DNA of 64,000 bases. Origin: an uncultured Thiomicrorhabdus sp. (lineage in GTDB: Bacteria > Pseudomonadota > Gammaproteobacteria > Thiomicrospirales > Thiomicrospiraceae). Of the stretch, positions 1,753 through 59,635 are shown in pieces. The notes below the pieces were generated by a model that saw only the letters and a list, made by a program, of their open reading frames with translations, was not told the DNA's origin and searched no databases. Location of the stretch: positions 33,887 through 97,886 of the forward strand of contig CBFDDF010000008.1 of assembly GCA_965603495.1 (NCBI GenBank), given 5' to 3'. Position 1 is the stretch's first letter. Each line of letters opens with the position of its first letter. Position numbers and translations under genes: made by a program.

Positions 1753-1802
1753 AAAAAGCCCGTTAAAGTGGCCAGGCCTGGTCACTTTAACGGGCTTTTT
1801 TT
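1753..1802. terminator. Bidirectional intrinsic terminator between convergent ygfZ and lysS, with CCAGGCCTGG at the apex
   Basis: AAAAAGCCCGTTAAAGTG (1753-1770) pairs with CACTTTAACGGGCTTTTT (1783-1800); A/T tracts on both sides. Confidence 0.9.
1771..1782. repeat. ACCAGGCCTGGT family copy (GCCAGGCCTGGT, 1 mismatch)
   Basis: Read directly from the sequence, inside the terminator hairpin. Confidence 0.9.
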
Positions 1803-1882
1803 ATGCACGAGATATGCACTCGACTTAGCAAAATCTTCCAGCCCTATTTCAGGCTAGAAAATTCATCACCAAATGTTAGCTT

Positions 1883-3394
1883 TTACTGCTTACGCATATG
1901 CGGAAACAACAAGACATCACGAATTGAAGCCGAATCAGTGAATAACATCACCAAACGGTCAATCCCGATACCTTCACCTGCTGTCGGTGGCATAGCGTGC
2001 TCCAAAGCGGTAATGTAGTCTTCATCATAATGCATCGCTTCATCATCACCGGCATCTTTTGCCTCGACTTGAGACTTAAAGCGCTCTGCTTGGTCTTCTG
2101 GGTCATTTAACTCGTTGAAACCGTTCGCCAACTCACGACCACCGATAAACAACTCAAAACGATCAGTAATAAATGGGTCCTGGTCATTACGACGTGCCAG
2201 TGGAGAAACTTCTGCTGGATACTCAGTAATGAACGTTGGATCCATTAGCTTTTCTTCAACCGTCTCTTCAAAGATCTCAGTGATAATTTTACCTAAACCA
2301 TAGCCTTCTTTAACATGAATCTTCAAGCTATTGGCCAAAGCAGTTGCTGACTCAATCGTCTCTAACTGAGAAAGCTGAATGCCTTCGTTGTACTGCACAA
2401 TCGAATCTTTCATGCTTAAACGTGCAAACGGCTTACCAAAATCAAACTCCAGTCCTTGATAAGGCACTTTAGTCGAACCAACCGCCAACTCCGCCAACTC
2501 TTTCAGTAGCTCTTCCGTGTAATCCATCAACTGATGGTAATCAGTGTAAGCAGCATAGAACTCAACCATGGTGAATTCTGGATTATGACGCGTCGAAAGC
2601 CCTTCGTTTCGGAAACTACGGTTAATCTCGAAAACACGTTCAAAACCACCAACCACTAAACGCTTAAGGTAAAGCTCAGGTGCAATACGTAGATAAAGCG
2701 GCATATCCAACGCATTGTGATGCGTGTTAAAAGGCTTAGCAGTTGCGCCCCCTGGAATGACATGCATCATTGGGGTTTCAACTTCCATGAAATCATGACG
2801 AATCAAGAAGTTACGTACATGTTGTACAATTTTAGAACGCAACATGAACGTTTCACGTGTTTCTTCGTTAACGATTAAATCGACATAACGCTGACGGTAA
2901 CGGACTTCTTGATCTTGCAGACCGTGGAATTTATCCGGTAATGGACGAATCGACTTAGTGATTAGCTCAATATGCTCAACGTGAATTGAAAGCTCGCCGG
3001 TATTGGTTTTAAAAACAAATCCTTCAGCCCCAACGATATCGCCTAAATCCCATTTTTTAAACTGAGTGTTATAGAAATCGGTTGGTAACTCATCACGCGT
3101 AACATAGATCTGAATACGTCCGGTAGGATCTTGCAAAGTTGCAAAACTTGCCTTCCCCATAATACGACGTAACATCATACGTCCTGCCACCTTAACACGC
3201 ACTGGCTCGCCGGCTTCTAACTCTTCTTTGCTCTTAGCATCATAAAGAAGATGTAACTCTGCAGCATTATCCTCACGGCGAAACGTATTTGGGTATGAAT
3301 GCCCGCCTTCTCTTAATGCATGAAGTTTTGCGCGGCGTTCTGCAATGATTTTATTCTCATCAACTTCAGGCACTGTATTTTGTGTTTCGGACAT
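1883..3394 (-). CDS. lysS: Lysine--tRNA ligase (class II)
   Basis: OB-fold [16 protein letters not shown]; motif 2 [11 protein letters not shown]; [13 protein letters not shown]; motif 3 [11 protein letters not shown]. Confidence 0.98.
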
Positions 3395-3420
3395 GGGATA
3401 ACTCTCTTAACTTTAATTGG

Positions 3421-3463
3421 TAAAACGACCAGGCCTGGTGGTTTTAAAACGACCAGGCCTGGT
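3421..3463. repeat. Tandem direct repeat TAAAACGACCAGGCCTGGT x2 (24-nt period) carrying two ACCAGGCCTGGT copies (3428-3439, 3452-3463)
   Basis: Read directly in the prfB-lysS spacer. Confidence 0.95.
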
Positions 3464-3564
3464 AACTTAATAGATTGGAATATGAACGGTATTTTAAGGC
3501 TTTAAGTCGTTAAAAACTAGTTAAACAACACTTAACTTGGTTAAAGACGCTTTTTAAAATAGTC

Positions 3565-4660
3565 TTAAACACCTGCTTTTAAACTGGCGACAATAAACTG
3601 ATCTAAATCACCATCCAAGACAGCGCCAGTATTACCGGTTTCAACATTGGTTCTTAAATCTTTGATGCGCCCTGAATCCAATACATACGAACGAATTTGA
3701 CTGCCCCAACCGATATCCGATTTAGAGTCTTCTAACTCTTGCTTATCCGCATTACGACTTAACATCTCTAGCTCATATAACTTAGCGCGCAACTGTTTCA
3801 TCGCTTCGGCTTTGTTTTGATGCTGTGAACGACCATTCTGACACTGAGTCACCGTATTGGTCGGTAAGTGTGTAATACGCACCGCTGATTCGGTTTTGTT
3901 AACGTGCTGCCCACCCGCGCCACTGGCACGATAAACATCAATTCGTAAATCCGCCGGGTTAATATCCACCTCAAAACTGTCATCAATTTCTGGAGAGATA
4001 AATACCGATGCAAACGAAGTATGGCGACGATTACTCGAGTCGAATGGCGACTTACGGACTAAACGATGCACGCCAGTTTCAGTGCGTAACCAACCAAACG
4101 CATAATCGCCCTGCACATGGATGGTGGCGCCTTTAATGCCCGCCACATCGCCCGCTGTGATTTCAATAATCTCTGCTTTAAAACCGTGGCTGTCCGCCCA
4201 ACGCAGATACATCCTTAAAATCATATTGGCCCAGTCTTGAGCTTCTGTACCACCCGAACCTGACTGAATTTCTAAATAGGCATTATTGGGATCCATCTCA
4301 CCCGAGAACATACGTTGGAACTCAAGCTTTTCAAGTTTTTCGCCCAAAGCATCCAAATCGGCAACGACTTCATCGACCATTTCCTGGTCATTTTCCATCT
4401 CTGCCATTTCGAGCAGTTCTTTGACCGATTCGGTGCCTGATTCCATCTGATCAATGGTGGAAACAATCATCTCTAACTGAGATTTCTCCTTGCCTAAGGC
4501 TTGCGCCTTTTCAGGATCATTCCAAACATTGGAATCCTCCAGTTCTCGTAAAACTTCATCTAAACGCTCTGAACGGGCTTCATAGTCAAAGATACCCCCT
4601 AAGCACTTGTGTACGCGCCTGGTAATCATCAATACGAGTATAAATAGGATTAAGTTCCAT
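3565..4660 (-). CDS. prfB: Peptide chain release factor 2, translated by programmed +1 frameshift: join(4660..4589, 4587..3565)
   Basis: ATG 4660 gives [24 protein letters not shown] then TGA; the +1 frame continues [12 protein letters not shown] motif (GAGGQHVN) and SPF anticodon mimic (KSPFDS) present. Confidence 0.97.
4585..4600 (-). promoter_or_regulatory. prfB autoregulatory frameshift signal
   Basis: Minus strand AGG GGG TAT CTT TGA C: internal SD, slippery CTT-T and UGA stop, the canonical RF2 site. Confidence 0.96.
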
Positions 4661-10824: not shown

Positions 10825-11667
10825 ATGCTTGTCACCCATTCAGGTCGTTTTCACGCTGACGAAGTCTTTGCAATCGCCATGATTTTAATGATTGAAGACC
10901 GAGAAGTCACGCGCACAAGAGATGACGAAATTATTCAAAAAGCCGACATTGTATTAGATGTAGGGGCTGAATATAATCCACAAACATTACGCTTCGACCA
11001 CCATCAGAATAGTTTTACCAGGGCCAGAGAAGATGGCACACCGTACGCCACAGCAGGCCTGGTCTGGGAACATTTTGGCGAACTCATATTAGCTAAAAAA
11101 GGCCTTAAAGGCAATTATGAAAAACAGTTTGCTTTGCAATGGGTAGATAACAAACTCATCAGTGACATCGATGCGGTTGATAATGGCATGTACACTGAAG
11201 ACCCACGTCCATCGGTCTCAATGTTAGTAGGCATGATGAATGCATCGTCTTCTGAAGATACTGAACAACAAGAAGCAGCCTTTAAACAAGCTGTCAGTTT
11301 CACTACTGGAATTTTGGATAATTTTATTAAAGCAGCTATGAAAGAAGCCGAAGTGGTGGTTGAACTTGAAGCCTGTAGCAAAAATGTTGAGGCAGGCATT
11401 CTCACGTTAGAAAAGAACCTACCATTCAAAGATTTCATTCGTTCACACCCAGAAATTACACGCGTAGTCTATCCAAGAAGTGCGGGGCAATTTGGTGTTT
11501 TCTGCAATGGTAAAGAGAACCATCTTCCTGAAAGATTTCGCGGATTAAGAGATATTGAACTCAATGAAGCCACAGGATTAACAGACACTATTTTTTGCCA
11601 CAAGTCTGGCTTTATGTCGGTTTGTTCAAGTTTAGAAAGTGCCTTATTCATGGCTAAAAGCCAATAA
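10825..11667 (+). CDS. MYG1 (UPF0160) family DHH-type exonuclease
   Basis: THSGRFHADEV, DVGAEYN...RFDHHQ, TAGLVW, DAVDNG, FCHKSGF are MYG1-family motifs. Confidence 0.88.
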   Translation: MLVTHSGRFHADEVFAIAMILMIEDREVTRTRDDEIIQKADIVLDVGAEYNPQTLRFDHHQNSFTRAREDGTPYATAGLVWEHFGELILAKKGLKGNYEKQFALQWVDNKLISDIDAVDNGMYTEDPRPSVSMLVGMMNASSSEDTEQQEAAFKQAVSFTTGILDNFIKAAMKEAEVVVELEACSKNVEAGILTLEKNLPFKDFIRSHPEITRVVYPRSAGQFGVFCNGKENHLPERFRGLRDIELNEATGLTDTIFCHKSGFMSVCSSLESALFMAKSQ

Positions 11668-11677
11668 AAACAAACCT

Positions 11678-11689
11678 ACCAGGCCTGGT
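11678..11689. repeat. ACCAGGCCTGGT palindrome (extends to CTACCAGGCCTGGTAG)
   Basis: Exact copy 10 nt after the MYG1 stop. Confidence 0.95.
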
Positions 11690-11761
11690 AGATTGCAAAA
11701 AATACAAAAGCATTCAAGTCTAATAGGCTCAATGCCATGCTAATGAAACGATACCAAACGT

Positions 11762-14324: not shown

Positions 14325-17300
14325 CTATTCAACTTCTATCGGTTTAATTGACGCCAACCATGATTTAAGCCAAAGCTTGAATTCTGTTTTATTCATCGGC
14401 TTGGCGATAAAGTAACCTTGAACCATGTCGCAGCCTAATGCCTTAACCACATTCCACTCTTCTTCAGTCTCAACCCCTTCAGCAACAATGCTAAGGTTTA
14501 AGCTTTTCGCCATCTCAACGGTCGATGTCAAAATAATTCTAGAATCAGTATCCTGGTCGGACCTATGGACAAAAGAACGGTCTAACTTCAACTCTTTGAA
14601 TGGAATACGCTGTAACGTTTCCAACGATGAAAAACCAGTACCGAAGTCATCAATAGACACGCCAATTTTTTGCATTGTCAATCGAGTTAATATTTCAAGC
14701 GCAACCGCGGGGTCTTTCATGACCCGACTTTCTGTCACTTCGATAATAATATTTTCTAAAAATAAATGTGCATTATCTGCTTCACTTATCAAATAGTCAT
14801 ACCAAGATAAATCAGTTAAGGAATCGCCAGAAATATTAACCGATACCTTTAGGTTGTATCCTTGTTTAATCAATTCCCCCGTAAATAAAAATGCCTTCTT
14901 AATGACCACTTCGGTCAAGCCAGAAATTAAACCTTCTTCCTCAACCCTCGAAATAAAACTTGCCGGACTGATGAACCCTCGTTGTGGGTGATTCCAGCGA
15001 ACCAACGCTTCCATACCCATTGGTACTTTTGTTCGCATGGACACCTTAGGTTGATAGAATACTTCAAACTGGTCTTGGTCTAAGGCCTCTAAAATTTCCT
15101 CTCGAGCAATTTTTACTTCAGGCTGACACTCTTTACTTTGGACTTTTTCCGTAGGTATGAAGCGCTCTACGATTTCGACAATCGATTCGATTTTAATCGG
15201 TTTTTCAAGCACACCAATAACATTCAAATCATGCATATCTGCAAGCCTATTCGCTGCTTTCAACACCTTGATATCCTCACCACTTATCAATATAACCGCC
15301 CCAGAGAATTGATGGGAGGCTAATAATCTTAATACTTCCATACCATCCATATCTGGCATATTTAAATCACAGAAAATAACATCCACTTGATCTTTATGTG
15401 TTGAGATGTGATCAAGTGCTTCAGCACCTGAGGTCGTTAAGAAGATACCACCAACTGAAAGCTTTTCTAAAATCGTTGATAAAATTTCTAGTATAAATAG
15501 ATCATCATCTACGACCATCACATTCAAACCAGATGACGCAGGAGACTCAATCACATCATTAGGGGCAAGCTGTTCAAGCTGACAATAAGACGCTATAAAG
15601 GCTTCAACATCATCCATTCTCGGAAAAATAGACGGTACCAAATTTTTCAAAACATCAATGTCATTTTGTTTTGCGGCACTTTCGATCTGCTCCACAATAT
15701 TCGCGAAAGAATCTGCACCAATCGTTCTGGTGGATGATTTTAATTTATGGGCGACATTTTGGACAGCTACCAGGTCGTTAGCGTTAAAAGCCTCGCTTAA
15801 AATTTTGAGATCTTCCGGCGTTGTTTTAATGAAATCTTTTAAAATGTTACAGTTTAATTCAAGGTCGTCTCCCACCAGAGCCTGCAGTGCTTTAATGTTG
15901 ACGCAGGGTTCCTCAAATGCCAGCTCATTTACAGGAATATTTGAGTTTTGAACTTCTGATAATACAGGCATTGCATCTGTACTTTGACTCAACCAATGAT
16001 TCAGCTTTTCTTCTAAAATATTAAGGTTAATCGGCTTCGATAAATAATCATCAACTCCTGATTCGAAGAACTCCGTTTTTGATGCTTCCATAGCATCTGC
16101 TGTTGCCGCAATAATAGGTAGGCGTGTTTGTTGGCCTTTCTCACTCATCCGAATCTTTTTAACCAATTCGATACCACTCATTTTAGGCATGTGAATATCG
16201 GTTAACAGCAGATCGAATTGACCTACCTGTAATAACTCCCAAGCCTCTTGACCATCACCCGCAATTTTAGACTGATACCCCAGTAGTGATAATTGCTGAG
16301 AAATCACATGCTGATTTATGACATTATCTTCTGCGATTAAAATCCTATAATCCGCTGCCTTCATTTGCTTGTCGGCATCAATATGAATAACGCTGTCGGT
16401 TAAATTCTCGCCACTTTCCTCAACAAAAGGTTCAGATGGAAACGTCACTTTAAATGTCGAACCGATACCTAACTGAGTTTCTAGACCCAATTCTCCACCC
16501 ATCATCTCAACTAGCTGCTTAGTGATAACCAGTCCAATTCCTGAACCTTCAATATCACTAAACTCAGCCCCCAGACGATTGAATGGCGTAAATAGCAAGG
16601 ATCTTCTTTCTTCTGAAATGCCTAAACCGGTATCTCTGACACCGATAGTCAAGCGATTGTTTTGATCGACCTCACAGGTAATGTCAACCAAACCATCTTT
16701 ACGGTTATATTTAATTGCATTAGAAATAAAGTTTATAAACACCTGTTTGATGCGACGTTTATCAACCAAGATACCTCGCCCTGGACAGGTACTTGTAACC
16801 TCGAGCTTAACACCATATTTCTGCGCTAAAGGATTCATCAAAGAACAGGCTTGTGCAATTGCTTCACTGAGGTTGCACCACTCTAAATGGATATCTTTAT
16901 CACCCGCTTCAATTTTTGCGAGATCCAAAACCTCATTGATTAAGTTTAATAGATGTTCACCCGCACTATAAATCTCGCTCACATTTTGAATAATTGATTG
17001 ACTCAACGTTTTATCGTACTGGATCATCTGGGAATAACCCAAAATGGCGTTCAAAGGCGTTCTCAACTCATGACTCATACTGGATAAAAACTCAGATTTG
17101 GCTCTATTTGCATATTCTGCTTGCTCTTTAGCCAAGAGCAAAGCCTCTTCAGCAGCTTTACGTTCAGAGATATCCCTAACCACCCCCGTGTACATTATTT
17201 CTCCCGCCACAATCATTTCATTGACAGCAAGCTCCATAGGGAAAACACTACCGTCTTTCCGCTGTCCAGCGACCTCTCTACCAATACCAATAACCTTATT

Positions 17301-19019
17301 CTCTCTAGTCTCCCTATGACGTTTCAAATAGCCATCATGCTCTTCCTGATAAGGAGCTGGCATGAGCATTTTGACATTTTGGCCGACCATCTCTTCAGCT
17401 GTATAATCAAATATCGTTTCCACTGCGGGGTTGACGGTTTCAATAATACCCATATTATTGATGGTAACGATCGCATCCAATACGGTTTCAACAATCGCTT
17501 TAACCCTGGCTTCTTTGTCTTTAAGCGATTGTTCATAAGCTAACCGTATTTCAATACTATGAAAAAAACCTATCCCATGCCATCGTTCATTCAAAATAAC
17601 GGATGTAAAGGACAACTCAACAGGTACCTCCTTGCCATCCTTATTTTGGGTTAAAATAATTTTGTGTTGATTCAACCATTCTTTTTCACACCATTCTTTA
17701 AAAGAGCTCGTTCGACTCGCCATTTGTTTTTGAGCCGATTCAGAAAAAATTAACTCAATTAAATGCTTACCTACCACCTCTTGAAAGCCATATCCATATA
17801 AGGCTTCTGCACCCGGATTCCAGAAATCGACCTCACACAGGTCATTGACAATAATAATGCCATCGTTGGCATTGTTAGTGATGGCGTTTAAACGTTTTTC
17901 TTTTTCCGCAAGGGCTGTAAATTGTTCAAAAACAGTTAGTTGATATTCTCTTCTTCGATGTATATTGAGCATTAGGTAAACAGCAAACAAAAAGCTAATA
18001 ATTAAAGTTACACCACTGGCAATCAAAGGCACATACGTTTGCTTCGAAAGAAATCCTACTCCGACTGGTATAAAGACAAATTTCCAGTTAGCGCCATAAG
18101 CACGAGAGTCTATAGCAAAAAATTCAGTGGGACCAAGGGTTTTGAAGAAGGCTTTATTTAAAACTTTACTATCGGAATTTAGAGTTTTTTTATATTTTTT
18201 TGCGCGACTCCCATGGTAGACAATCAAATTCTTCTGATCGATGTCCTGATCATAAATATAAAATTCTAATCCACCAGGCACAGGGACATACTTATCTAAT
18301 GCATGTAAGACCAATTCAGCAAAATTTATCGACAAAATGATAAACCCATTGAATTTTCTGTGTTGCTGATATCTATCTATCACGTCTTGCGGCGCACTAA
18401 ATACTGGCATAATGACCTTAAAAGCTTCAGAATGATCCGAAACAATAGGCGCCGTTAAAAACTCAATATAAAACTGCGGTTTTCCCGTTTCCATCGCGAG
18501 TTGCAATTTATGAACCAAATCCGGGTTTTCGAATTCCTCAGTCCAGCGGACATGTTCTGCCGAAGGTTTATGCATACCAGGCGAAGCTGTATGGGTTTCA
18601 ATGTGTGTTTTTGTGTAAAAATGATCATGAGTAAATTGCTCTTGCAAAACTTGTGGGGTTATCATCCGACCTTCAGAATATCCTAAGCCACTTTTATCAT
18701 CTAAAATTAGAACCTCATTAAGCTCTTTTGAAGGGACATACGTTTGTTGCATAAACTTTTGAAATTTATCCGCAAACAATCCTTTTTCTTTGCTTTTCAG
18801 CTGGGCTAAGGATTCGCCTAAATCAATAACTTCCTCTTGTAGGGTATCTATAATAACGGCCATACGAATATTAGCTTTCTGGCTAAATTCACTTTGAACG
18901 GCCTTTTCTTCAATTTTAGAATAGTACTCAAATTCAAGTATAGAAAGTATCAAACCAACAACAAGAACAACGACAAATCCCGTGACAGCTTCTTTATCCT
19001 TAAAAATATTTAGAACCAT
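14325..19019 (-). CDS. Membrane sensor CHASE-PAS-PAS(heme)-HisKA-HATPase-REC-HPt-REC-EAL
   Basis: Two TM segments flank a CHASE-like region; FixL-like PAS; SMSHELRTPL; LLTDIHMP; VAHKLKSS; IFCDLNMP; EALVRW, DDFGTGFSS, AEGVET. Confidence 0.88.
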   Translation of the reverse strand: MVLNIFKDKEAVTGFVVVLVVGLILSILEFEYYSKIEEKAVQSEFSQKANIRMAVIIDTLQEEVIDLGESLAQLKSKEKGLFADKFQKFMQQTYVPSKELNEVLILDDKSGLGYSEGRMITPQVLQEQFTHDHFYTKTHIETHTASPGMHKPSAEHVRWTEEFENPDLVHKLQLAMETGKPQFYIEFLTAPIVSDHSEAFKVIMPVFSAPQDVIDRYQQHRKFNGFIILSINFAELVLHALDKYVPVPGGLEFYIYDQDIDQKNLIVYHGSRAKKYKKTLNSDSKVLNKAFFKTLGPTEFFAIDSRAYGANWKFVFIPVGVGFLSKQTYVPLIASGVTLIISFLFAVYLMLNIHRRREYQLTVFEQFTALAEKEKRLNAITNNANDGIIIVNDLCEVDFWNPGAEALYGYGFQEVVGKHLIELIFSESAQKQMASRTSSFKEWCEKEWLNQHKIILTQNKDGKEVPVELSFTSVILNERWHGIGFFHSIEIRLAYEQSLKDKEARVKAIVETVLDAIVTINNMGIIETVNPAVETIFDYTAEEMVGQNVKMLMPAPYQEEHDGYLKRHRETRENKVIGIGREVAGQRKDGSVFPMELAVNEMIVAGEIMYTGVVRDISERKAAEEALLLAKEQAEYANRAKSEFLSSMSHELRTPLNAILGYSQMIQYDKTLSQSIIQNVSEIYSAGEHLLNLINEVLDLAKIEAGDKDIHLEWCNLSEAIAQACSLMNPLAQKYGVKLEVTSTCPGRGILVDKRRIKQVFINFISNAIKYNRKDGLVDITCEVDQNNRLTIGVRDTGLGISEERRSLLFTPFNRLGAEFSDIEGSGIGLVITKQLVEMMGGELGLETQLGIGSTFKVTFPSEPFVEESGENLTDSVIHIDADKQMKAADYRILIAEDNVINQHVISQQLSLLGYQSKIAGDGQEAWELLQVGQFDLLLTDIHMPKMSGIELVKKIRMSEKGQQTRLPIIAATADAMEASKTEFFESGVDDYLSKPINLNILEEKLNHWLSQSTDAMPVLSEVQNSNIPVNELAFEEPCVNIKALQALVGDDLELNCNILKDFIKTTPEDLKILSEAFNANDLVAVQNVAHKLKSSTRTIGADSFANIVEQIESAAKQNDIDVLKNLVPSIFPRMDDVEAFIASYCQLEQLAPNDVIESPASSGLNVMVVDDDLFILEILSTILEKLSVGGIFLTTSGAEALDHISTHKDQVDVIFCDLNMPDMDGMEVLRLLASHQFSGAVILISGEDIKVLKAANRLADMHDLNVIGVLEKPIKIESIVEIVERFIPTEKVQSKECQPEVKIAREEILEALDQDQFEVFYQPKVSMRTKVPMGMEALVRWNHPQRGFISPASFISRVEEEGLISGLTEVVIKKAFLFTGELIKQGYNLKVSVNISGDSLTDLSWYDYLISEADNAHLFLENIIIEVTESRVMKDPAVALEILTRLTMQKIGVSIDDFGTGFSSLETLQRIPFKELKLDRSFVHRSDQDTDSRIILTSTVEMAKSLNLSIVAEGVETEEEWNVVKALGCDMVQGYFIAKPMNKTEFKLWLKSWLASIKPIEVE

Positions 19020-21471: not shown

Positions 21472-21483
21472 ACCAGGCCTGGT
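21472..21483. repeat. ACCAGGCCTGGT palindrome
   Basis: Exact copy in AAACTT-ACCAGGCCTGGT-AGGTTT. Confidence 0.95.
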
Positions 21484-25519: not shown

Positions 25520-25553
25520 GTATTCCAGTCCCTTATCTTCTTATTCTTCTTAA

Positions 25554-27527: not shown

Positions 27528-27533
27528 TAACAA

Positions 27534-28477: not shown

Positions 28478-28494
28478 ATTGAGTTCGCTTTCCG

Positions 28495-35287: not shown

Positions 35288-35300
35288 TTATTAGTCCTAA

Positions 35301-35972: not shown

Positions 35973-36018
35973 AGTAAAACTACCTTACCGCCTATTTCGC
36001 CGATGAATAACCAAGGAT

Positions 36019-36495: not shown

Positions 36496-36842
36496 TCAAG
36501 CGCTCCCTTTCTCCACTCGTAAATAAAACCAACCACCAATAGAGACAGAAAAACCCCCATTGCCAGCAAGCCAAAGGTTCCTACTTCCTCAAGCGCAAGC
36601 GCCCAAGGAAACAGGAATGCAATCTCTAAATCAAAAATAATGAATAGAATAGCGACAAGATAAAAACGCACGTCAAACTTCATGCGTGAATCTTCAAAGG
36701 CTTCAAATCCGCACTCATATGGAGAGTTTTTCTCTGAATCTGGCTTTTGTGGACCGAGCAAATACCCAATCAAGATCGGCCCTACACCAAACATAGCCCC
36801 TAGTACGATAAAAACTAGGACTGGAAGATAGTTTTCTAGCAT
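36486..36842 (-). CDS. nuoA: NADH-quinone oxidoreductase subunit A
   Basis: [23 protein letters not shown]. Confidence 0.98.
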
Positions 36843-36870
36843 TGCTACACACCTCGTCTAGCTTTAAATT

Positions 36871-36921
36871 AACTACTGCAGCTTTGCAATAGACATTGAA
36901 CTACTGCAGCTTTGCAATAGA
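36871..36921. repeat. Tandem direct repeat AACTACTGCAGCTTTGCAATAGA x2 (36871-36893, 36899-36921)
   Basis: 23-bp exact duplication with 28-bp period between tRNA-Leu and nuoA. Confidence 0.95.
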
Positions 36922-36929
36922 TCTAAATA

Positions 36930-37014
36930 TGGTGCCGATGGCCGGACTCGAACCGGCACAGCTTGCGCCACTACCCCCTCAAGGTAGCGTGTCTACCAAT
37001 TTCACCACATCGGC
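36930..37014 (-). tRNA. tRNA-Leu (GAG)
   Basis: GCCGATGTGGTGAAATTGGTAGACACGCTACCTTGAGGGGGTAG...GGTTCGAGTCCGGCCATCGGCACCA, 85 nt with long variable arm; downstream of secG as for E. coli leuU. Confidence 0.96.
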
Positions 37015-37067
37015 ATATAGATTGAATCCAATTTTAAAAAACTGGATTCGAATATTAGTTTGTTACT

Positions 37068-37385
37068 TTAGTTTGGAATAACAGGCGCGTCAGTAGGTTC
37101 AACGACCGTTGCTGACGCTGCTTCTTTAGCAACACTTTGATAACCTTTCGCTTTCTGACTACCGATATAAGCCAAAGCTAAACTTGTCACGAAGAAAACG
37201 GCTGCGATAATCGCTGTCATTCTTGATAAAAAGGTTCCTGAACCTCCACTACCGAATACTGACTGCGAAGAACCACCGCCACCAAAGTTGGCGCCTGCAT
37301 CCGCACCCTTACCGTGCTGAATAAGCACAAACACGATAAGAAGGAAAGCTACAATTAAATGAATCGTTAGAACTATTTCAAACAT
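37068..37385 (-). CDS. secG: Preprotein translocase subunit SecG
   Basis: [17 protein letters not shown]...FLSRMT. Confidence 0.95.
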
Positions 37386-39581: not shown

Positions 39582-40418
39582 CTACATTAAATGCATCGTT
39601 ACCCGCAAGGCATCCACCGTCGCTTTAACATCATGAACCCGTACAATACTAGCGCCCTTAATAGACGCCAAAACAGCCGCAGCGACACTCCCGAACAACC
39701 TATCTTCAACAGCTGCACCGTTTAAAATATCACCAATCATACGCTTTCTGGAAACCCCCACTAGGAGCGGATACCCTAAATTGGTAAATTGGTCTAAATT
39801 TTCGAATAGCTGGCTATTATGCGCTAAATTCTTACCAAACCCAAACCCTGGGTCCAAGATAATTTGGCTACTGGCCATTCCGGCCTGTCGACAAAGGCTA
39901 ACTCTCGTTAACAAGAAATCACTGACCTCCGTCACTACATCATGATATTGAGGGGCATCCTGCATAGTTGAGAATTCACCCAACTTATGCATCAGACAAA
40001 CAGTAGCACCGGAATTTACAACACATTCAACTGCACCTTCTGCCTGCAATGCATTGACATCATTAATCAACCTTACCCCCATACTAACGGCTTCTGACAT
40101 CACTTCTGTCTTATAGGTATCAATAGAGATAGGCGTATCGTAACGTGCAGCAATCCATTCAATCACAGGCAATACTCGATCCAACTCTTGCTGTAAACCT
40201 ACCTGAACTGCACCAGGCCTGGTTGACTCACCACCGACGTCAATAATATCAACTCCTGACTGAACCATCGTTTCTACCCGCTGAGCAATCTGCTCTTCAG
40301 AAGTAAAGGCCCCGCCATCCGAAAAAGAGTCAGGTGTGATATTCAAAACCCCCATCACTAAAGGCATGTTGTTCTGAGTTGATGATTTCTGGGCTATCAG
40401 TGCATTAATGTCTAACAT
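39582..40418 (-). CDS. folP: Dihydropteroate synthase
   Basis: MGVLNITPDSFSDGG, GGESTRPG, DPGFGF, GVSRK, IVRVHDV. Confidence 0.97.
   Translation of the reverse strand: MLDINALIAQKSSTQNNMPLVMGVLNITPDSFSDGGAFTSEEQIAQRVETMVQSGVDIIDVGGESTRPGAVQVGLQQELDRVLPVIEWIAARYDTPISIDTYKTEVMSEAVSMGVRLINDVNALQAEGAVECVVNSGATVCLMHKLGEFSTMQDAPQYHDVVTEVSDFLLTRVSLCRQAGMASSQIILDPGFGFGKNLAHNSQLFENLDQFTNLGYPLLVGVSRKRMIGDILNGAAVEDRLFGSVAAAVLASIKGASIVRVHDVKATVDALRVTMHLM
40212..40223. repeat. ACCAGGCCTGGT palindrome inside folP (reads TRPG)
   Basis: Exact copy. Confidence 0.95.
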
Positions 40419-44920: not shown

Positions 44921-44932
44921 ACCAGGCCTGGT
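44921..44932. repeat. ACCAGGCCTGGT palindrome in the purF-metZ spacer
   Basis: Exact copy; a half copy ACCAGGC follows at 44947. Confidence 0.95.
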
Positions 44933-44961: not shown

Positions 44962-46479
44962 CTAGCTACCGTTATAAATTCCGACCGTTTCCTGACCGGA
45001 AGCTTGTTTAGTCGCTTGTGCATCATCATTACGTGCACTATCTATAGACGCTAAATACTCAGGCGTAATATCTCCTGTGGCATAAATTCCACTGAAACAA
45101 GAGGTATCAAATTCAGCAATCTCTTCATTACCCACCCCGACCGCTTCAATCAAATCTTCCAAGTCTTGATAGATTAATTTATCACAACCAATAATTTCGG
45201 CCACTTCTTCAACGGTTCGATTACTCGCGACCAACTCTGTCGGTGACGGCATATCAATTCCATAAACATAAGGAAAGCGAACAGGGGGTGCCGCAGAGGC
45301 GAAATATACTTTTTTAGCGCCCGCTTCACGTGCCATTTCAACGATTTGTGCAGAGGTGGTACCACGAACAATCGAATCATCGACTAATAACACGTTTTTA
45401 CCTTCGAACTCTAAACCAATTGCATTCAGCTTTTGACGTACAGATTTTTTACGTAACTGTTGTCCAGGCATAATGAAGGTACGACCGATATAGCGGTTTT
45501 TGATAAAACCTTCACGATATGGAGAACCCAATCTAGAGGCCAATTCTAATGCAGAGGTGCGACTGGTATCCGGAATCGGCATCACCACATCGATATCATG
45601 ATCTGGCCACTCTTTAAGGATTTTATCCGCAAGCTTTTCCCCCATACGTAGACGAGACTTATGAACGGAGATGTTATCAATCATTGAATCAGGACGAGCA
45701 AAATAAACAAACTCAAAGATACAAGGCGATAATTTCGGATTTTCAGCACACTGCTGAAAGAAAATCTGACCGGAATCCGTAATAACGACCGCTTCACCAG
45801 GTGCCAAATCTTTCAATAACTCGAAACCCAGCCCATCTAAGGCGACAGACTCAGAAGCCACCATGTAATCAAAACCATCCGCATTTGCGCGTTGTCCAAC
45901 CACCACTGGTCGCAAACCAAAAGGATCACGAAAAGCTACGATACCGATATTAGAAATAACGCCGACAGCAGCATAACCACCACGCACACGTTTATGTACA
46001 TTACGAACCGCATTAAAAACATCTTCATGGTCAATAAACAGTTTCTTCTGCTGCATCAATTCATGAGCAAAAATATTTAAGAGTACTTCAGAGTCAGAAT
46101 TGGTATTCAGGTGGCGTAAGTCTTGACGATAAATGTCTTGAGCCAACTCATCAGCATTGGTTAAGTTACCGTTATGCCCCATCGCAATACCATAGGGTGA
46201 GTTAACGTAAAATGGCTGAGCCTCTGCACTCGAAGAAGAACCTGCCGTAGGATAACGAACATGGCCAATTCCAATATTACCATGCAAATCTCGCATGTGA
46301 CGTGTACGAAACACATCCTTAACCATGCCGTTATCTTTACGCTGATAAAAACGCCCTTGGTCACAAGTCACAATACCCGCGGCATCCTGACCACGATGTT
46401 GTAACGTAGTTAAAGCATCATAAATCTCTTGACCAACCGTTTGGCCGTTAGCCAGTACAATCCCAACAATACCGCACAT
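44962..46479 (-). CDS. purF: Amidophosphoribosyltransferase
   Basis: N-terminal [34 protein letters not shown]. Confidence 0.98.
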
Positions 46480-46526: not shown

Positions 46527-47123
46527 TCAATTAAGTTGCACGACTTCTGCATTCGTTCGTAACATTTTATCTAATTTTTGCTTGTCTTGTTCAGCTTTGG
46601 CTTTAGAAAAATAAGGCCCTGTTCGCACTGAATAAGTTGCAGTTTTTTTAAATTCTTTAATCGACACTTCATAATTGGATTCAAGACGCCCCAGTAAGTG
46701 ATTGGCTTTCTTGATATCTTTATAGGCCGTCACTTTGACAATCCACTGTGGTGGAGTGTGTTTATCCATTTTAACAGCACTGACTGACTCTGTTTTTTTT
46801 TCAGAAGTCACTTGATTAGCGATTTGGCGGGGCGCTACATCTACACTTTTATCCGTCGCTGACGGTGATGAATTTAAGGCTGGCGTTATAACAGCTTGCT
46901 GATTCGTCACTGGAGTGCTTTGAACCTCCACTTGCTTCTGTCGGGTTTGCACGGGCAATTCATAAACATGCTCAACCAAGGGGCGCTCGCCCTTGATTAA
47001 TTCAACCTGATGGCCTAAAGGTTGGAAATTAACAGGGTGACTATACCAACCTGGGACCACAACCACCAATAAAAGCAGCCAAATAACGGCACCGGTTAAA
47101 CGATACTTGCTTACTTCATCCAT
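46527..47123 (-). CDS. dedD: SPOR-domain cell division protein, DedD-like
   Basis: RLTGAVI + TM, low-complexity linker, C-terminal SPOR-like WIVKV...VRTGPY; follows folC. Confidence 0.75.
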   Translation of the reverse strand: MDEVSKYRLTGAVIWLLLLVVVVPGWYSHPVNFQPLGHQVELIKGERPLVEHVYELPVQTRQKQVEVQSTPVTNQQAVITPALNSSPSATDKSVDVAPRQIANQVTSEKKTESVSAVKMDKHTPPQWIVKVTAYKDIKKANHLLGRLESNYEVSIKEFKKTATYSVRTGPYFSKAKAEQDKQKLDKMLRTNAEVVQLN

Positions 47124-48459
47124 GAACAGAACCCATCATTTCAGCAGACGTGTTCGAAGGTAAATTCATCAACACTTGAGACACTGTAAAAAATGAACCC
47201 CAAACTAACACATCTTCTGCAGCACAGCTTCTAGCATAAGCAACTGCATCAGCCATACTATGCTTGGCAATGATATTTGAATCTTCGACCCCGGCTGCAT
47301 TCAATAAACCACGCAGTGCTTCAACCGAGGTTGCTCGAGGTATCTCTAAATCGACAATCACCCAAGTAGACACAAAAGGCGCTACCTGTTGAACCATCGG
47401 TAATGCATCTTTATCGTTTAATACCGAAAACAGAGACAAATAACTTAACTGATTTTGCTTCGTTTGCTGCTGTAAATAATCAGCCAAAGCTTGCGCTGAC
47501 TGAGGATTGTGGGCAACATCAATCAACCAGGATTGCGGCCCAAACTCTATGGACTGCAATCGACCGGGGTGACAGACCTGTTGCAAGCCTAACTTAATCG
47601 CTTTACGATCAACCGGCAACGAGGATCCAAGTTTAGATAATAGAGCAACCACCCCTGCTGCATTATTTAATTGAAACTCACCTTTAAGAGCTGGAAAAGG
47701 TAAATCATCTAATGCACCAATCAGCTGAACAGCATTTTGCTGCGTCAACCACTTAAATGACCAGGCCTGGTCAGTTACTTGCAAATCGAAATCAACTTTA
47801 AACTGACTTAACGGCACTGCATGTTTACCTGCATAAGCCATTAAACTGGCCGGAGGATTCATATCCGAACAAATTGCGGGTTTTCCACTGCGCATGATAC
47901 CGGCTTTTTCCGTAGCGATAATACTGCGGTCATCCCCTAACCAATCTACATGATCAATATCAATCGCCGTAATCAAAGCTGCATCTGCATCGACAATATT
48001 GACTGCATCCAGGCGGCCACCTAAACCAACCTCAAGCACTACAACATCTAATTGCGCCCGTTTAAAAATATAGAGTGCCGCTAAGGTAGAAAACTCAAAA
48101 TAGGTTAATTTAGTTTCTGCTCTAGCCGCTTCAATCGCTATAAATGCCTCAATGATCAAATCATCACTGACGGGATTGCCGTTAATTTGTATACGTTCGT
48201 TAAAAAACTGGATATGCGGGGAAGTATAAGCGCCGACTTTATAGCCAGCGGCTTTGACAATCGCAACCAATAACGCAACACTAGAGCCTTTACCATTGGT
48301 TCCAGCAACACTAATCACCAATGGCCCAGGCCTGGTAATTTGCATAGCTTCAGCCACCAGACGAATCCGGTCAAGGCCAAGGTCTATTTCTTGAGCGTGT
48401 AATTGAAGTAACCAATCAACCCAGTCGGTTAGACTGGATTGACGATTCGGAATTGTCAT
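47116..48459 (-). CDS. folC: Dihydrofolate synthase / folylpolyglutamate synthase
   Basis: VAGTNGKGS, YTSPH, EVGLGGRLDA, DVAHNP. Confidence 0.97.
   Translation of the reverse strand: MTIPNRQSSLTDWVDWLLQLHAQEIDLGLDRIRLVAEAMQITRPGPLVISVAGTNGKGSSVALLVAIVKAAGYKVGAYTSPHIQFFNERIQINGNPVSDDLIIEAFIAIEAARAETKLTYFEFSTLAALYIFKRAQLDVVVLEVGLGGRLDAVNIVDADAALITAIDIDHVDWLGDDRSIIATEKAGIMRSGKPAICSDMNPPASLMAYAGKHAVPLSQFKVDFDLQVTDQAWSFKWLTQQNAVQLIGALDDLPFPALKGEFQLNNAAGVVALLSKLGSSLPVDRKAIKLGLQQVCHPGRLQSIEFGPQSWLIDVAHNPQSAQALADYLQQQTKQNQLSYLSLFSVLNDKDALPMVQQVAPFVSTWVIVDLEIPRATSVEALRGLLNAAGVEDSNIIAKHSMADAVAYARSCAAEDVLVWGSFFTVSQVLMNLPSNTSAEMMGSVHG
47760..47771. repeat. ACCAGGCCTGGT palindrome inside folC (reads DQAW; extends to TGACCAGGCCTGGTCA)
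   Basis: Exact copy. Confidence 0.95.
48325..48336. repeat. ACCAGGCCTGGT family copy inside folC (CCCAGGCCTGGT, reads TRPG)
   Basis: One mismatch at the first base. Confidence 0.85.
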
Positions 48460-50340: not shown

Positions 50341-51546
50341 TTAGAATTCAAACCCTTCAATTTGTGCAATGGTATTCATATCTTTATCACCGCGCCCAGA
50401 CAAGTTGACGACAATCATCTGGTCTTTAGACATGGTTGGCGCCAATTTAGTCGCATATGCAATCGCATGACTGGATTCCAGTGCCGGAATAATACCTTCA
50501 TATTTGGTTAGATCTCTAAAACCCTGTAACGCTTCTTCATCGTCAATTGCGACATACTCGACACGTTTAATATCTTTTAACCAAGCATGTTCAGGCCCCA
50601 CGCCGGGATAATCTAGACCTGCGGAAATAGAGTGCGTCCCTAAAATTTGACCATGCTCATCCTGCATCAAATAGGTACGATTACCATGTAGAACGCCTGG
50701 CTTACCTTTACATAAAGGCGCCGCATGCTGCCCAGTTTCAAGCCCTAAGCCACCAGGTTCAACTCCCACCATTTTGACACTGTCATCGCTTAAAAACTCA
50801 TGAAACAGACCAATGGCATTTGACCCACCGCCGACACAAGCGATCAACACATCTGGTAATTTACCTTCCTGCACTAATGATTGTTGCTTGGCTTCACGAC
50901 CAATAATCGCCTGAAAATCCCTCACCATACCAGGATATGGATGTGGCCCTGATACCGTACCAATAATATAGAAAGTATCATCGACATTCGTTACCCAGTC
51001 ACGCATCGCTTCATTCAGTGCATCCTTCAAAGTACGCGAACCGGATTCTACACCAATCACAGTCGCACCGAGCATTTTCATTCGAGCCACATTTGGGGCT
51101 TGACGAATAACATCATCTGCCCCCATGTAGACAACACATTCCAAACCTAAACGAGCGGCAACCGTCGCACTAGCAACACCGTGTTGCCCAGCACCAGTTT
51201 CTGCAATAATACGGGTCTTGCCTAAGCGTTTTGCAAGCAGCGCTTGTCCAATCGCATTGTTGACCTTGTGGGCACCAGTGTGATTCAAATCTTCACGCTT
51301 TAAATAGATTTTTGCACCACCCAAAGATTCAGACCAACGTTTCGCATAATATAAAGGCGTAGGACGCCCTACATAGTTTTGTAGATCTTCAGCCAACTCT
51401 TTTAAAAAATCAGGATCGTTCTTAACACTTTTATACTCCTGATTAAGTTGCTCCAATGCTGCCATTAAAGTTTCTGGCGCAAAAATACCACCATAAGGAC
51501 CAAAATGCCCGTGTTCATCAGGGTATTTAGAATAATCTATTGTCAT
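50341..51546 (-). CDS. trpB: Tryptophan synthase beta chain
   Basis: [44 protein letters not shown]. Confidence 0.98.
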
Positions 51547-52187
51547 TGGACTGTACTCATAACTTGTTGCATAAATTTTTGTATTTTTTCAGCGGATTTT
51601 ACCCCTTTCGAAGCCTCTACTCCGCCACTGACGTCAAGCGCCCAGGGCGCGACCTGTTGAATGGCTTGCTGAACGTTTTCAGCCTTTAAGCCACCCGCTA
51701 AAATAATTCTTTTGGCTATGTCTGATGGGATACTCGCCCAATCAAACTGCTCTCCCGTACCACCAGGAATGCCTTCTTTGTAAGCATCCAACAGCAGGCC
51801 TGCCGAACTGCTATAGCGCGCTTCCAAAGCGACTAAATCAATACCTTCTCGCATTCGAACGGCTTTAATATACGTCAGACCAAACTGTTCACAGAACTCG
51901 GGACTTTCATCTCCATGAAACTGTAATAGATCAATTTTTACCGCGCTTAACACCGTTTTAACGTATTCAACATCCGGGTTCACAAATAAGGCAGTCTTAG
52001 TCACAAATGCAGGAATAGATTCCGCAATTGACCAGGCCTGGTCAATACTCACGTGACGTGGACTTGGTTCATAAAACACCAAACCAATGGCATCTGCGCC
52101 GCAATTCACAGCGAACAATGCATCCTCCGTAGAGGTCAATCCGCAAATCTTAACACGTGTTCTTTGATTAGCGAGACTCACTGCCAC
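51543..52187 (-). CDS. trpF: Phosphoribosylanthranilate isomerase
   Basis: [32 protein letters not shown]. Confidence 0.97.
52031..52042. repeat. ACCAGGCCTGGT palindrome inside trpF (reads DQAW; extends to ATTGACCAGGCCTGGTCAAT)
   Basis: Exact copy within a 20-bp perfect palindrome. Confidence 0.95.
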
Positions 52188-56645: not shown

Positions 56646-56657
56646 ACCAGGCCTGGT
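56646..56657. repeat. ACCAGGCCTGGT palindrome in the leuD-leuB spacer
   Basis: Exact copy. Confidence 0.95.
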
Positions 56658-56699: not shown

Positions 56700-57338
56700 T
56701 CAGTTAAACAACCAAGGCGCTACTTTTCTAGTCTTGGCTTCATAGGCTTTAATATCATCTTGATAAGCCAATGTTAAACCGATGTCATCCAAACCATTCA
56801 TTAAGCAATGCTTTCTAAAAGAGTCCACTTCAAATGGAATCGCTTCCCCATTAGGCTTAATGATTTGTTGCGCCGCTAAATCAACTGTTAGTTGATAACC
56901 CTCTTCAGCAAACACCTCTTTAAACAGACCATCAACGATAGCCTCATCTAAAACAATCGGAATAATGCCGTTTTTGAAGCAGTTATTAAAAAAGATATCA
57001 GCAAAACTTGGCGCGATAACCACATCAAAACCGTAATCTTTCAGCGCCCAAGGTGCGTGCTCTCGACTTGATCCACAACCAAAATTTTCACGCGCCAATA
57101 AAATATGAGCACCCTGATAACGAGCTTGATTTAAAACAAACTCTTTACGTAACGGACGACCTGAGTTATCAGAATCAGGCTGACCCACATCTTCATAACG
57201 CCATTCATCAAACAAGTTAGGACCAAAACCTGTGCGTTTAATTGATTTTAAAAACTGCTTAGGAATAATCGCATCAGTATCCACATTCGCACGGTCCATC
57301 GGGGCAACAATTGATGTCTTTTTTATAAACTTTTCCAT
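56700..57338 (-). CDS. leuD: 3-isopropylmalate dehydratase small subunit
   Basis: [34 protein letters not shown]. Confidence 0.98.
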
Positions 57339-57361
57339 CTTATCTCTCCACTCCTGCTCGG

Positions 57362-58777
57362 TTAGATGTAATCACGCACGTCAACAAAATGACCTGCTAT
57401 CGCTGCCGCTGCCGCCATTTCCGGACTGACCAAATGAGTACGACCACCCGCGCCTTGACGACCTTCAAAGTTACGGTTTGAAGTTGAGGCACAATGTTTA
57501 CCGGTCGGTAACTTATCAGCGTTCATCGCTAAACACATCGAACAGCCAGGATTACGCCATTCAAAACCAGCCTCAATAAAGATTTTATCTAAACCTTCCG
57601 CTTCTGCTTGCTGTTTAACCAAACCAGAACCCGGTACAGCTAAGGCCAATTCGACTTTATCCGAAACCTTTCTACCTTTCAACACTGCTGCCGCAGCTCT
57701 AAAATCTTCAATACGTGAATTGGTACAAGAACCGATAAAGATATATTCAGCTGGAATATCTTTAATAGCCATATCCGCTTCAAGCCCCATATAGGCTAAA
57801 GCTCGACGAATTCCGTCCGCTTTCACCACATCCATTTCATTTGCAGGATTAGGAACCTTACCGTTGATATCTAACACCATCTCTGGCGAAGTACCCCAGG
57901 TGACTTGTGGCTCAATAATTGAACCATCTAATTCAACTACAGTATCAAACACCGCATCGGCATCAGAGGTTAAATCCATCCACGCAACCACCGCCGCATC
58001 CCAATTATCGCCTGTTGGTGAAAAAGGGCGACCTTGAACATATTCGATGGTTTTCTCATCCACCGCAACTAAACCAACACGCGCGCCGCCTTCAATCGCC
58101 ATATTACAAACGGTCATACGCCCTTCAATGGACATATCACGAAAGACTTGACCACCGAACTCGATCGCATGACCATTGCCGCCAGCTGTACCAATCTTGC
58201 CAATAATTGCCAACACGACATCTTTTGGAGTCACGCCCGCGGATAATTTCCCGTCGACCTTGACCAGCATATTCTTCATCTTTTTCTGAATTAAGCACTG
58301 AGTCGCCAAGACGTGCTCGACTTCAGAGGTACCGATACCGTGCGCTAATGCACCCAAAGCACCATGTGTTGCCGTATGAGAATCACCACAAACCACGGTC
58401 ATACCAGGCAAAGTTGCACCGGACTCAGGGCCAACGACATGAACGATACCTTGACGAATATCACCCATCGCATATTCTGTAATCCCAAATTCACGGGTAT
58501 TCATACCCAAAGTCTCAACTTGAATACGTGAAACAGGATCGGTGATACTCGCAATCCCATTACTTAAATCTGTCGTCGGCACGTTATGATCCGGCGTGGC
58601 TAAATTAGTATCAATACGCCAAGGCTTACGATGTGCCATGCGCAGACCTTCAAACGCCTGTGGAGAAGTTACCTCATGTAGCAACTGGCGATCAATATAA
58701 ATCAGAGCCGTTCCATCATCTTCCTGACGCACAATATGTGCATCCCACAATTTATCGTATAAAGTCTTTGCTGACAT
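57362..58777 (-). CDS. leuC: 3-isopropylmalate dehydratase large subunit
   Basis: [42 protein letters not shown]. The track starts at 58816; ATG 58777 is more likely. Confidence 0.98.
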
Positions 58778-58941
58778 CGCGTTTAACCCAACCAGTGTAA
58801 ATTTTAAAATAATCACAAATTATATCACTTCATCCCCCATTCTAAATAGTAAAATACACGCAATATATCAATCTATTCGACTTATTCGTACTAAGCAAAA
58901 GCTTTCAGTGAAAGCCCGCATAAAACCAAAGGAAATCAAAG

Positions 58942-59598
58942 ATGAGTTATTCGGTGAAAGAAGTCTTTTACTCCTTACAAGGTGAAGGATTCCATAGCGG
59001 CCGCCCTGCTATTTTTTGCCGAATGAGCAAGTGCAACCTATGGACAGGCCGAGAAGAAGATCGTGCGACGGCCGTTTGCCAATTTTGCGATACTGATTTT
59101 ATTGGTACCGATGGTCAAAACGGCGGCAAGTTTGCAGATGCCGAAGCACTTTGCCAACACCTTTTACAATTTTGGCCTAAAGACTCAAAAGGCGAAACAA
59201 AAGAGCACCCATTTGTCGTTATCACTGGCGGCGAGCCGCTTTTACAGGTTGACAAGCTGCTAATCGACCAACTGCATAAACATCACTTCGAGATTGCCAT
59301 TGAAACCAACGGCACCAAATCAGCACCCGAAAATATCGATTGGATTTGCATGAGCCCTAAAGCCAACGCACCCCTTATTTTGGAATCGGGTCACGAGTTA
59401 AAATTGGTTTACCCTCAGCCGGATTTAATGCCTGAGAAAGTGGCTGATTTAGATTATGATTACTTCTACTTACAACCCATGGATGACAAAGATCCTTTGG
59501 TAACTCAACAAAACATTAAACAAGCCGTGGCATATTGCTTGGCTCACCCGCAATGGAAATTGAGCTTACAGACCCATAAACTATTGGGCATTGACTAA
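58942..59598 (+). CDS. queE: 7-carboxy-7-deazaguanine synthase (radical SAM, Cx14CxxC type)
   Basis: KEVFYSLQGEG, C-N14-CQFCDT, ITGGEPL, IETNG, SPK, LSLQTHK. Confidence 0.93.
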   Translation: MSYSVKEVFYSLQGEGFHSGRPAIFCRMSKCNLWTGREEDRATAVCQFCDTDFIGTDGQNGGKFADAEALCQHLLQFWPKDSKGETKEHPFVVITGGEPLLQVDKLLIDQLHKHHFEIAIETNGTKSAPENIDWICMSPKANAPLILESGHELKLVYPQPDLMPEKVADLDYDYFYLQPMDDKDPLVTQQNIKQAVAYCLAHPQWKLSLQTHKLLGID

Positions 59599-59623
59599 AC
59601 TACGCCACTCTAAAAGCCAATTG

Positions 59624-59635
59624 ACCAGGCCTGGT
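59624..59635. repeat. ACCAGGCCTGGT palindrome after queE (extends to AATTGACCAGGCCTGGTCAATT, 59619-59640)
   Basis: Exact copy within a 22-bp perfect palindrome. Confidence 0.95.

Follow-up and report, generated by a model that had tools for sequence, protein, structure and literature searches.

Why does a bacterial chromosome write out one and the same 12-bp palindrome again and again, in its genes as well as between them? The question is raised by 64,000 nucleotides from an uncultured Thiomicrorhabdus sp. of the family Thiomicrospiraceae (C8:33887-97886 of the assembly; this whole stretch is hereafter the window), in which an original prediction had picked out the perfect palindrome ACCAGGCCTGGT. 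It listed 11 exact copies, starting at 3428, 3452, 11678, 21472, 30842, 40212, 44921, 47760, 52031, 56646 and 59624, together with one-mismatch copies at 1771, 11052 and 48325, and a pattern search reproduced all 11 and all three; these 14 matches compare with 0.06 expected, and none of 100 dinucleotide shuffles reached 14. We followed the word through the whole assembly (2,641,366 bp in 16 contigs, 14 of them large, with a GC content that had been put in the low 40s and was measured at 42%), using a simple gene call of 2,249 genes that makes 87% of the genome coding and 13% intergenic, and through 99 genomes of the family. From this comparison ACCAGGCCTGGT is evidently the local form of a highly iterated palindrome (HIP), with the core CAGGCCTG, that is shared by Thiomicrospiraceae.

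Counted over the whole assembly, exact copies number 522, at one every 3.8-6.2 kb on each of the 14 large contigs. A Markov model would lead one to expect 0.07-0.66 copies of the 12-mer at orders 0-4 and, at order 5, 0.2 if the core is masked; left unmasked, order 5 gives 11, since the motif then inflates its own expectation. The excess suspected from the window holds for the genome at every order computed. No other 8-, 10-, 12- or 14-mers of the genome are as frequent as the word and its sub-words, the core CAGGCCTG (735 occurrences) being the top 8-mer. All 36 single-mismatch variants pooled amount to only 175 copies against the 522 exact ones, and the central eight positions are almost invariant. 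When the 522 copies are aligned, a dyad of about 24 bp emerges, aAAnTK-ACCAGGCCTGGT-MAnTTt, flanked by weaker A/T-rich positions at intervals of about 10 bp, past which no common sequence remains. The symmetry of the flanks, first remarked on in the window, therefore extends genome-wide (base -1 is G or T in 401 of 522 copies, base +1 is C or A in 383), and the flank logo is identical in coding and intergenic copies. This same symmetric preference inside and outside genes shows that the word is recognised as DNA, in its extended form, by something two-fold symmetric.

The copies within genes indicate how the word is written. They fall in three coding frames, xAC-CAG-GCC-TGG-T (89 copies), xxA-CCA-GGC-CTG-GT (77) and ACC-AGG-CCT-GGT (19), and two of those in the window can be followed in relatives. 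In nuoG (30066..32177, minus strand) the exact copy at 30842..30853 is spelled GAC CAG GCC TGG TT and encodes D-Q-A-W-L at a conserved D/E-Q-A-W-L position; motif-poor relatives read GAA CAG GCC TGG (E-Q-A-W), so that a single substitution (GAA to GAC) completes the copy. In folP (39582..40418, minus strand) the exact copy at 40212..40223 spells T-R-P-G of the invariant GESTRPGA as ACC AGG CCT GGT, and 11 motif-rich genomes in three genera use this spelling or one that is a single mismatch away, whereas motif-poor genomes encode the same peptide as ACN CGN CCN GGN; the AGG in the word is a rare codon, making up 4% of Arg codons. The pattern is general. The word encodes 19 of 25 TRPG peptides (76%, against 0.2% expected from codon usage; 0 of 4 in a motif-poor congener of which 2.1 of 2.37 Mb of genome letters were available for comparison), 128 of 163 QAW peptides (79% against 9%; 7 of 68 in the congener) and 110 of 268 PGL peptides (41% against 1.2%; 1 of 142). 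These peptides are moreover 1.5-5 times commoner than in the congener after adjustment for genome size. Codon capture and peptide surplus together indicate that the word has shaped both codon choice and amino-acid sequence, and the copies are made where they stand, through point substitutions, synonymous codons and, in some cases, a changed amino acid.

Placement along the genome is far from uniform at the scale of genes. The 522 copies comprise 185 within genes, 9 across a gene end and 328 intergenic, so that 65% fall in the intergenic 13% of the genome, mostly at gene 3' ends. Density per kb declines from 2.1 in convergent spacers (36% of which contain a copy) through 0.87 in tandem and 0.44 in divergent spacers to 0.08 in coding DNA; placement follows tolerance, with convergent gene ends preferred to tandem ends, tandem ends to promoter-side spacers, and these to coding DNA. 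The observation that intergenic copies mostly sit shortly after stop codons was borne out in the window, where six of the eight intergenic copies (seven exact, and 1771 with its one mismatch) follow a stop codon at a distance of up to about 100 nt. Between copies, the spacing in this draft assembly is exponential or Poisson-like, with a coefficient of variation of 1.0. The sole outlying gap, also the largest, spans 61 kb with zero copies (C6:26432-87210), and the phage-type integrase and OLD-family (OLD/AbiEii-like) nuclease at its start show it to be an acquired island. Also in this island are an 892-aa protein with a weak integrase-domain match, below the Pfam cut-off, and a neighbouring 1,054-aa protein, a pair reminiscent of the "DNA breaking-rejoining" genes beside the phosphonate island of T. 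crunogena XCL-2.

NuoG-based loci place the organism in Thiomicrorhabdus, and across its family the word is switched on, off or over to another form. Counted as CCAGGCCTGG in the 99 genomes, it reaches 200-850 copies in every one of the 11 genomes of one genus and in some of the genomes of Thiomicrorhabdus and of two further genera, and stands at 0-8 copies in many other genomes, including three whole genera, with some intermediate counts. The 12-mer, counted separately in named genomes, is abundant in T. arctica DSM 13458 (333), strain Milos-T2 (498), Hydrogenovibrio halophilus DSM 15072 (515), Thiomicrospira microaerophila ASL8-2 (518) and two Thiomicrospira metagenome-assembled genomes (670 and 698), and rare in T. 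heinhorstiae (2), T. cannonii (2), Hydrogenovibrio sp. JE_KL2 (0) and T. chilensis (16). Dialects became visible in k-mer counts on 100-kb samples of each genome: the CAGGCCTG core persists in T. chilensis and strain zzn3, roughly once in 2.7 kb and with relaxed or different flanks, and the samples of T. heinhorstiae, JE_KL2 and three others show no iterated palindrome of any kind. In one congener the usual word is missing altogether and ACCGGCCGGT occurs 1,025 times instead; elsewhere in the family this second word is found at most 15 times per genome, and its copies are likewise bordered by A-rich and T-rich flanks. As lineages have lost, decayed or replaced the word, individual copies look dispensable; the DNA uptake sequence (DUS) of Neisseriaceae likewise shows dialects, decay and replacement. 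Two of the samples contain other repeats. In its first 100 kb JE_KL2 has the repeated words ACCTGGCAGATTTT and CTGCCAGGTTGGGG at 7-13 copies per 100 kb, which may resemble repetitive extragenic palindromic (REP) elements, and in the first 100 kb of the motif-poor G045 many 10- to 12-mers occur 28-29 times each, which points to a long tandem-repeat gene or array. In IMG/VR viral contigs the 14-mer GACCAGGCCTGGTC was found once each in 49 stretches, by a rough, uncomputed estimate not above the chance level, and as it never occurred in multiple copies per stretch, no tagged phage was found.

What could write and maintain such a word? The original prediction offered methylation and repair as one route, with co-occurring methyltransferases. 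By analogy with cyanobacterial HIP1, orphan methyltransferases acting on CCWGG, GGCC or AGGCCT would, together with mismatch repair, drive copies to accumulate as by a ratchet; the word does nest all three sites, the switched dialect nests CCGG and GGCC, and cyanobacterial HIPs have been tied to methyltransferases (PMC4390886). However, six-frame family searches with PF00145 (C5), PF01555 (N4/N6) and PF02086 (D12) gave no match in this genome, and at least six other motif-rich genomes (G075, G016, G090, G044, G103, G110) are also without all three families, whereas several motif-poor genomes do carry genes of these families. A screen for the motif [DNS]PP[YFWH] returned only rRNA and protein methyltransferases and one type I HsdM, the sole DNA methyltransferase found in the genome, and CCWGG outside the word occurs at a count near expectation. 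A C5 methylase acting with very-short-patch repair was rejected as a candidate for want of a PF00145 match and because its presence was uncorrelated with the motif across 36 genomes, and N4/N6 and D12 methyltransferases, for which the genome gave no match either, were likewise uncorrelated. The existence of motif-rich genomes without the three main families leaves methylation-driven models unsupported, and we consider such a ratchet very unlikely here. Less credible still is a mobile family, in which REP elements, their hairpin-forming doublets (REPINs) or miniature inverted-repeat transposable elements (MITEs) would have been spread by a transposase. Hundreds of palindromic copies at gene ends, a patchy phyletic pattern and a gene resembling REP-associated tyrosine transposases (RAYTs) would all suit this, but conserved sequence ends at about 24 bp, and 35% of the copies lie in genes and have arisen by substitution; those at conserved positions of peptides already contradict a spread of this kind. 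The absence of shared sequence past this point rules out an element of the MITE/REP type, in keeping with the prediction of a lineage-specific, chromosome-wide word rather than a repeat with long conserved flanks. The RAYT-like HUH/Y1 transposase itself (C2:50216-50884, 222 aa, named from its sequence signature only) was rejected as a link because the repeat that borders it on either side, in inverted copies, is another one, AAGGGTAGCGTCCCCTT, and because a motif-poor genome has a 68%-identical homologue. With GGGTAGCGTCCCC present genome-wide at 8 exact copies, 12 allowing one mismatch and 33 allowing two, the gene and AAGGGTAGCGTCCCCTT look like a small REP/RAYT system apart from the 12-mer.

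Three further explanations were weighed. The most serious is that an abundant dimeric chromosomal protein may bind the word, for example in organising the nucleoid or relieving supercoiling at gene ends, with selection for that function keeping each site. The perfect dyad with phased A/T-rich flanks, the logo shared by genes and spacers, the enrichment at convergent gene ends, where positive supercoils accumulate, and the even density on contigs all agree with this. Lineage losses and one total swap, however, sit ill with 500-1,000 individually useful sites, and 500 exact 12-mers are far more numerous and sharper than known specific nucleoid-protein sites. The macrodomain-type sites first named as analogues (matS, SlmA, Noc) fit poorly: the genome has no site-free Ter-like region, as Noc or SlmA would predict, and no Ter-only clustering, as MatP would, and the even density on all 14 large contigs excludes macrodomain proteins, the largest gap being an island. 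None of the candidate proteins checked tracked the motif, and overall we regard a chromosomal protein as possible but doubtful. A methylation-independent bias in repair or gene conversion, by which for example a nicking or mismatch enzyme would turn near-matches into functionless copies of the word, would account for the scarcity of one-mismatch neighbours relative to exact copies, for origin by single-base changes and for the on, off or switched phyletic pattern. No candidate enzyme was identified in the genome, and we know of no such repair or nicking enzyme for a 12-bp site; the bias toward spacers does not favour this explanation because it is expected from tolerance under any drive model, and we think it unlikely. 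The last of the three makes an RNA role primary, with the palindrome as the apex of intrinsic bidirectional terminators or of stabiliser hairpins. At least four extra palindrome pairs extend 94 of 337 intergenic copies, against about 15 expected from the logo, a copy lies in over a third of convergent spacers, and in the window the hairpins at 1755-1798 and 11673-11694, around the copies at 1771 and 11678, were called as terminators, so a subset of copies does fit. Yet a T-tract on either side accompanies only about 40% of intergenic copies, which means that most are not canonical terminators. The 185 coding copies lack the extended stem and include those in nuoG, folP and trpF, where termination would be harmful; they exclude a terminator-only model, which would also leave codon capture unexplained, and a primary role of this kind is decidedly improbable.

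Our preferred account, which we hold as a real possibility rather than as the probable answer, is that the word may be a self-DNA tag of the kind represented by DUS, the uptake signal sequence (USS) and HIP1, kept by biased uptake or processing of self DNA followed by recombination. Under this proposal a component of DNA uptake, or of the processing of incoming DNA, would prefer fragments bearing the word, and homologous recombination would fix new copies by molecular drive. A change in the reader or its loss would then lead to dialects or decay, and intergenic copies able to form hairpins may secondarily serve as terminators. In its favour we count the abundance and sharpness of the word, its writing in place with codon capture, a flank logo common to coding and intergenic copies, the gradient of density from convergent spacers down to genes, the Poisson-like spacing around one empty island, the pattern of rich, intermediate and empty genomes in at least four genera, the dialects, the presence of an uptake toolkit and the precedent of HIP1. 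Lineages with such tags are so far the Neisseriaceae and Pasteurellaceae and, arguably, the cyanobacteria. That Thiomicrospiraceae would be a third bacterial lineage, with a palindromic, methyltransferase-independent self-tag for uptake or recombination read by a dimeric protein, is a more specific suggestion and a more tentative one.

Gene content is compatible with uptake. The genome encodes ComEC, a ComEA-like protein, a pilin cluster (C4:78887-86980) of six pilin-like genes, two of them of about 500 aa, beside a two-component system, an MSHA-like pilus operon and PilT/PilU-like ATPases, the last two named by sequence motifs and reading rather than by family search; the MSHA-like operon, the ATPases and the ComEA-like gene lie at C3:243873-256067, C1:612245-614487 and C1:604162-604335. 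The only prepilin-type proteins are the six of the cluster and the type II secretion pseudopilins, and no classical pilA-pilVWX set was seen in the genome. This inventory makes DNA uptake by the source organism plausible. Several observations nevertheless weigh against a self-DNA tag. Motif-poor relatives equally possess ComEC, the ComEA-like protein and the pilin cluster, so that gene content neither supports nor locates a reader, and no member of Thiomicrospiraceae is reported as naturally transformable in the literature searched. The word is a perfect palindrome, whereas known DUS and USS are asymmetric. Gene blocks without a homologue in the motif-poor congener carry 0.18 copies per kb against 0.20, a near-normal density, so that among acquired DNA only the youngest island is clearly depleted. 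Lastly, all the statistics drawn here from within the genome would also fit a word selected for the binding of a chromosomal protein.

Several more specific ideas about the reader and its traces were tried and rejected. Loss of competence genes does not distinguish motif-poor genomes, as ComEC is present in 42 of 44 genomes and a ComEA-like protein in 43 of 44 whatever their motif status. A minor-pilin receptor fared no better, because the six pilin-like proteins have motif-poor homologues and are weak or absent in some motif-rich genomes, and a general depletion in accessory DNA proved weak, with only the youngest island empty. A subtractive search left 688 of 2,249 proteins without a homologue in the motif-poor congener, 111 of the genes lying in 74 clean insertion or deletion sites, and 15 candidates were checked in nine genomes. 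The only partial correlate among the 15, an AlkD-like HEAT-repeat protein (C12:23360-24448), failed family-wide. No reader protein was found in this search, which was not exhaustive, with 15 candidates of the 688 checked across genomes.

The remaining copies in the window illustrate the same range of settings. The one-mismatch copy GCCAGGCCTGGT at 1771..1782 is the apex of a perfect 20-pair hairpin followed by TTTTT, between the convergent ORF 629..1729 (plus strand) and lysS 1883..3394 (minus strand). Beyond lysS, in the spacer that separates it from prfB 3565..4632 (minus strand), two exact copies stand in tandem at 3428..3439 and 3452..3463, downstream of prfB and upstream of lysS, within a region (3421-3468) where the 18-bp unit AAAACGACCAGGCCTGGT occurs twice with a 24-bp period. 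An ORF of the MYG1/UPF0160 family (10825..11667, plus strand) holds the one-mismatch copy AGCAGGCCTGGT at 11052..11063 in the frame xxA GCA GGC CTG GTx, and 11 nt past its stop an exact copy at 11678..11689 stands at the tip of a 9-pair hairpin that has its T-rich tail on the minus strand. Two copies, one exact at 47760..47771 in the Q-A-W frame and one with a mismatch at 48325..48336 in the T-R-P-G frame on the coding strand, share a Mur-ligase-family ORF (47116..48459, minus strand), and trpF (51543..52187, minus strand) has an exact copy at 52031..52042, again in the Q-A-W frame. The other exact copies are intergenic: 21472..21483, within AAACtTACCAGGCCTGGTAgGTTT, lies downstream of the nuo operon; 44921..44932 lies 30 nt downstream of the stop of an amidophosphoribosyltransferase-like ORF (44962..46479, minus strand); and 56646..56657, within GTAACtgACCAGGCCTGGTTAC, lies 43 nt downstream of the stop of ORF 56700..57338 (minus strand). 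The copy at 59624-59635 starts 26 nt past the stop of ORF 58942..59598 (plus strand) and is the centre of a perfect palindrome, CAATTGACCAGGCCTGGTCAATTG, whose extension beyond the word had been noted correctly and whose length is 24 bp (59618..59641) rather than the 22 bp first given. As for other content of the window, 24005-37385 (minus strand) appears to be the nuo (NADH dehydrogenase I) operon, of which nuoG alone is Pfam-confirmed, and a 1,564-aa ORF occupies 14325..19019. Elsewhere in the genome, some four occurrences of the parS-like palindrome GTTTCACGTGAAAC/TTTCACGTGAAA fall within the opening 100 kb of contig C1, and the samples of two congeners contain it too, so that this region is probably near the origin.

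There are few genome-wide iterated words such as DUS, USS and HIP1, and debate continues over what reads them and how they arose; to our knowledge the USS receptor has not been found after decades, and the function of HIP1 is only now emerging. Thiomicrospiraceae offer a natural experiment within single genera, with rich, decaying, empty and switched genomes that are small and in several cases belong to cultured type strains. Should the word be a self-DNA tag, roughly 100 relatives in which it is present, decaying, absent or switched would allow the reader to be identified by phylogenetic profiling. A HIP-like word maintained without the usual methyltransferases also constrains models for cyanobacteria. 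In practical terms, the word distorts codon usage and amino-acid content, its absence marks recently acquired DNA, and adding it to donor DNA may aid the genetic manipulation of these chemolithoautotrophs.

To the original prediction the motif seemed undescribed. In the literature searched, neither the 12-mer nor the 10-mer is described in this context, the family is not linked to uptake sequences or iterated palindromes, and the genome paper of Thiomicrospira crunogena does not mention the motif, so that for Thiomicrospiraceae the claim stands. It does not stand for the 8-bp core, since earlier work describes CAGGCCTG as the alternative HIP of Synechococcus sp. PCC 6312, where it has a frequency of 0.37 per kb and an observed/expected ratio of 14.7 (PMC5861425; PMC13756078). 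If the tag reading is true, this identical core would point to a portable reader module. In cyanobacteria HIP1 boosts the efficiency of natural transformation (bioRxiv 10.1101/2024.09.10.611283) and co-varies with type IV pilus genes (PMC13756078), and uptake-sequence copies in coding DNA have measurable effects on the proteome (PMC2817400).

Set beside the known systems, the present word comes closest to the self-DNA tags employed by other bacteria in DNA uptake. It can also be compared with the HIPs, namely CAGGCCTG of PCC 6312, with its identical core, and HIP1, GCGATCGC. In all of them a palindromic word abounds far beyond expectation, within genes as well as in spacers, arises by substitution and has lineage-specific variants and independent losses. 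The present word differs in belonging to Gammaproteobacteria rather than cyanobacteria, in being extended to 10-12 bp with phased A/T flanks, in having no cognate methyltransferase of the usual families, in its lower density (0.2 per kb, against 0.2-2.7 for HIP1) and apparently in its spacing, which looks Poisson-like in this draft assembly. With DUS and USS it has in common a 9-12-bp word in hundreds to thousands of copies, chromosome-wide and far above chance, with some intergenic copies in terminator-like hairpins, coding copies in tolerated frames that mark the proteome, A/T-rich flanks, and dialects among relatives (here the relaxed CAGGCCTG and ACCGGCCGGT). DUS and USS are asymmetric, however, and Thiomicrospiraceae are not known to be competent. 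The REP/REPIN elements with their RAYTs also number hundreds of palindromic copies at gene 3' ends and are patchy among related species, but the present word is not confined to extragenic DNA, is not copied as a unit and is not linked to the RAYT-like gene. The sites of nucleoid proteins (parS, Noc NBS, SlmA SBS and MatP matS) share with it a 12-16-bp dyad suited to a dimeric reader; the word, by contrast, has 10-100 times more copies, exact rather than degenerate and free of regional restriction, and a separate parS-like word, GTTTCACGTGAAAC, exists in the genome. Overall, the word would work in the manner of DUS, USS or HIPs, yet it fits the full definition of neither family: DUS and USS are not palindromes as it is, and it lacks the cognate methyltransferase that goes with HIP1.

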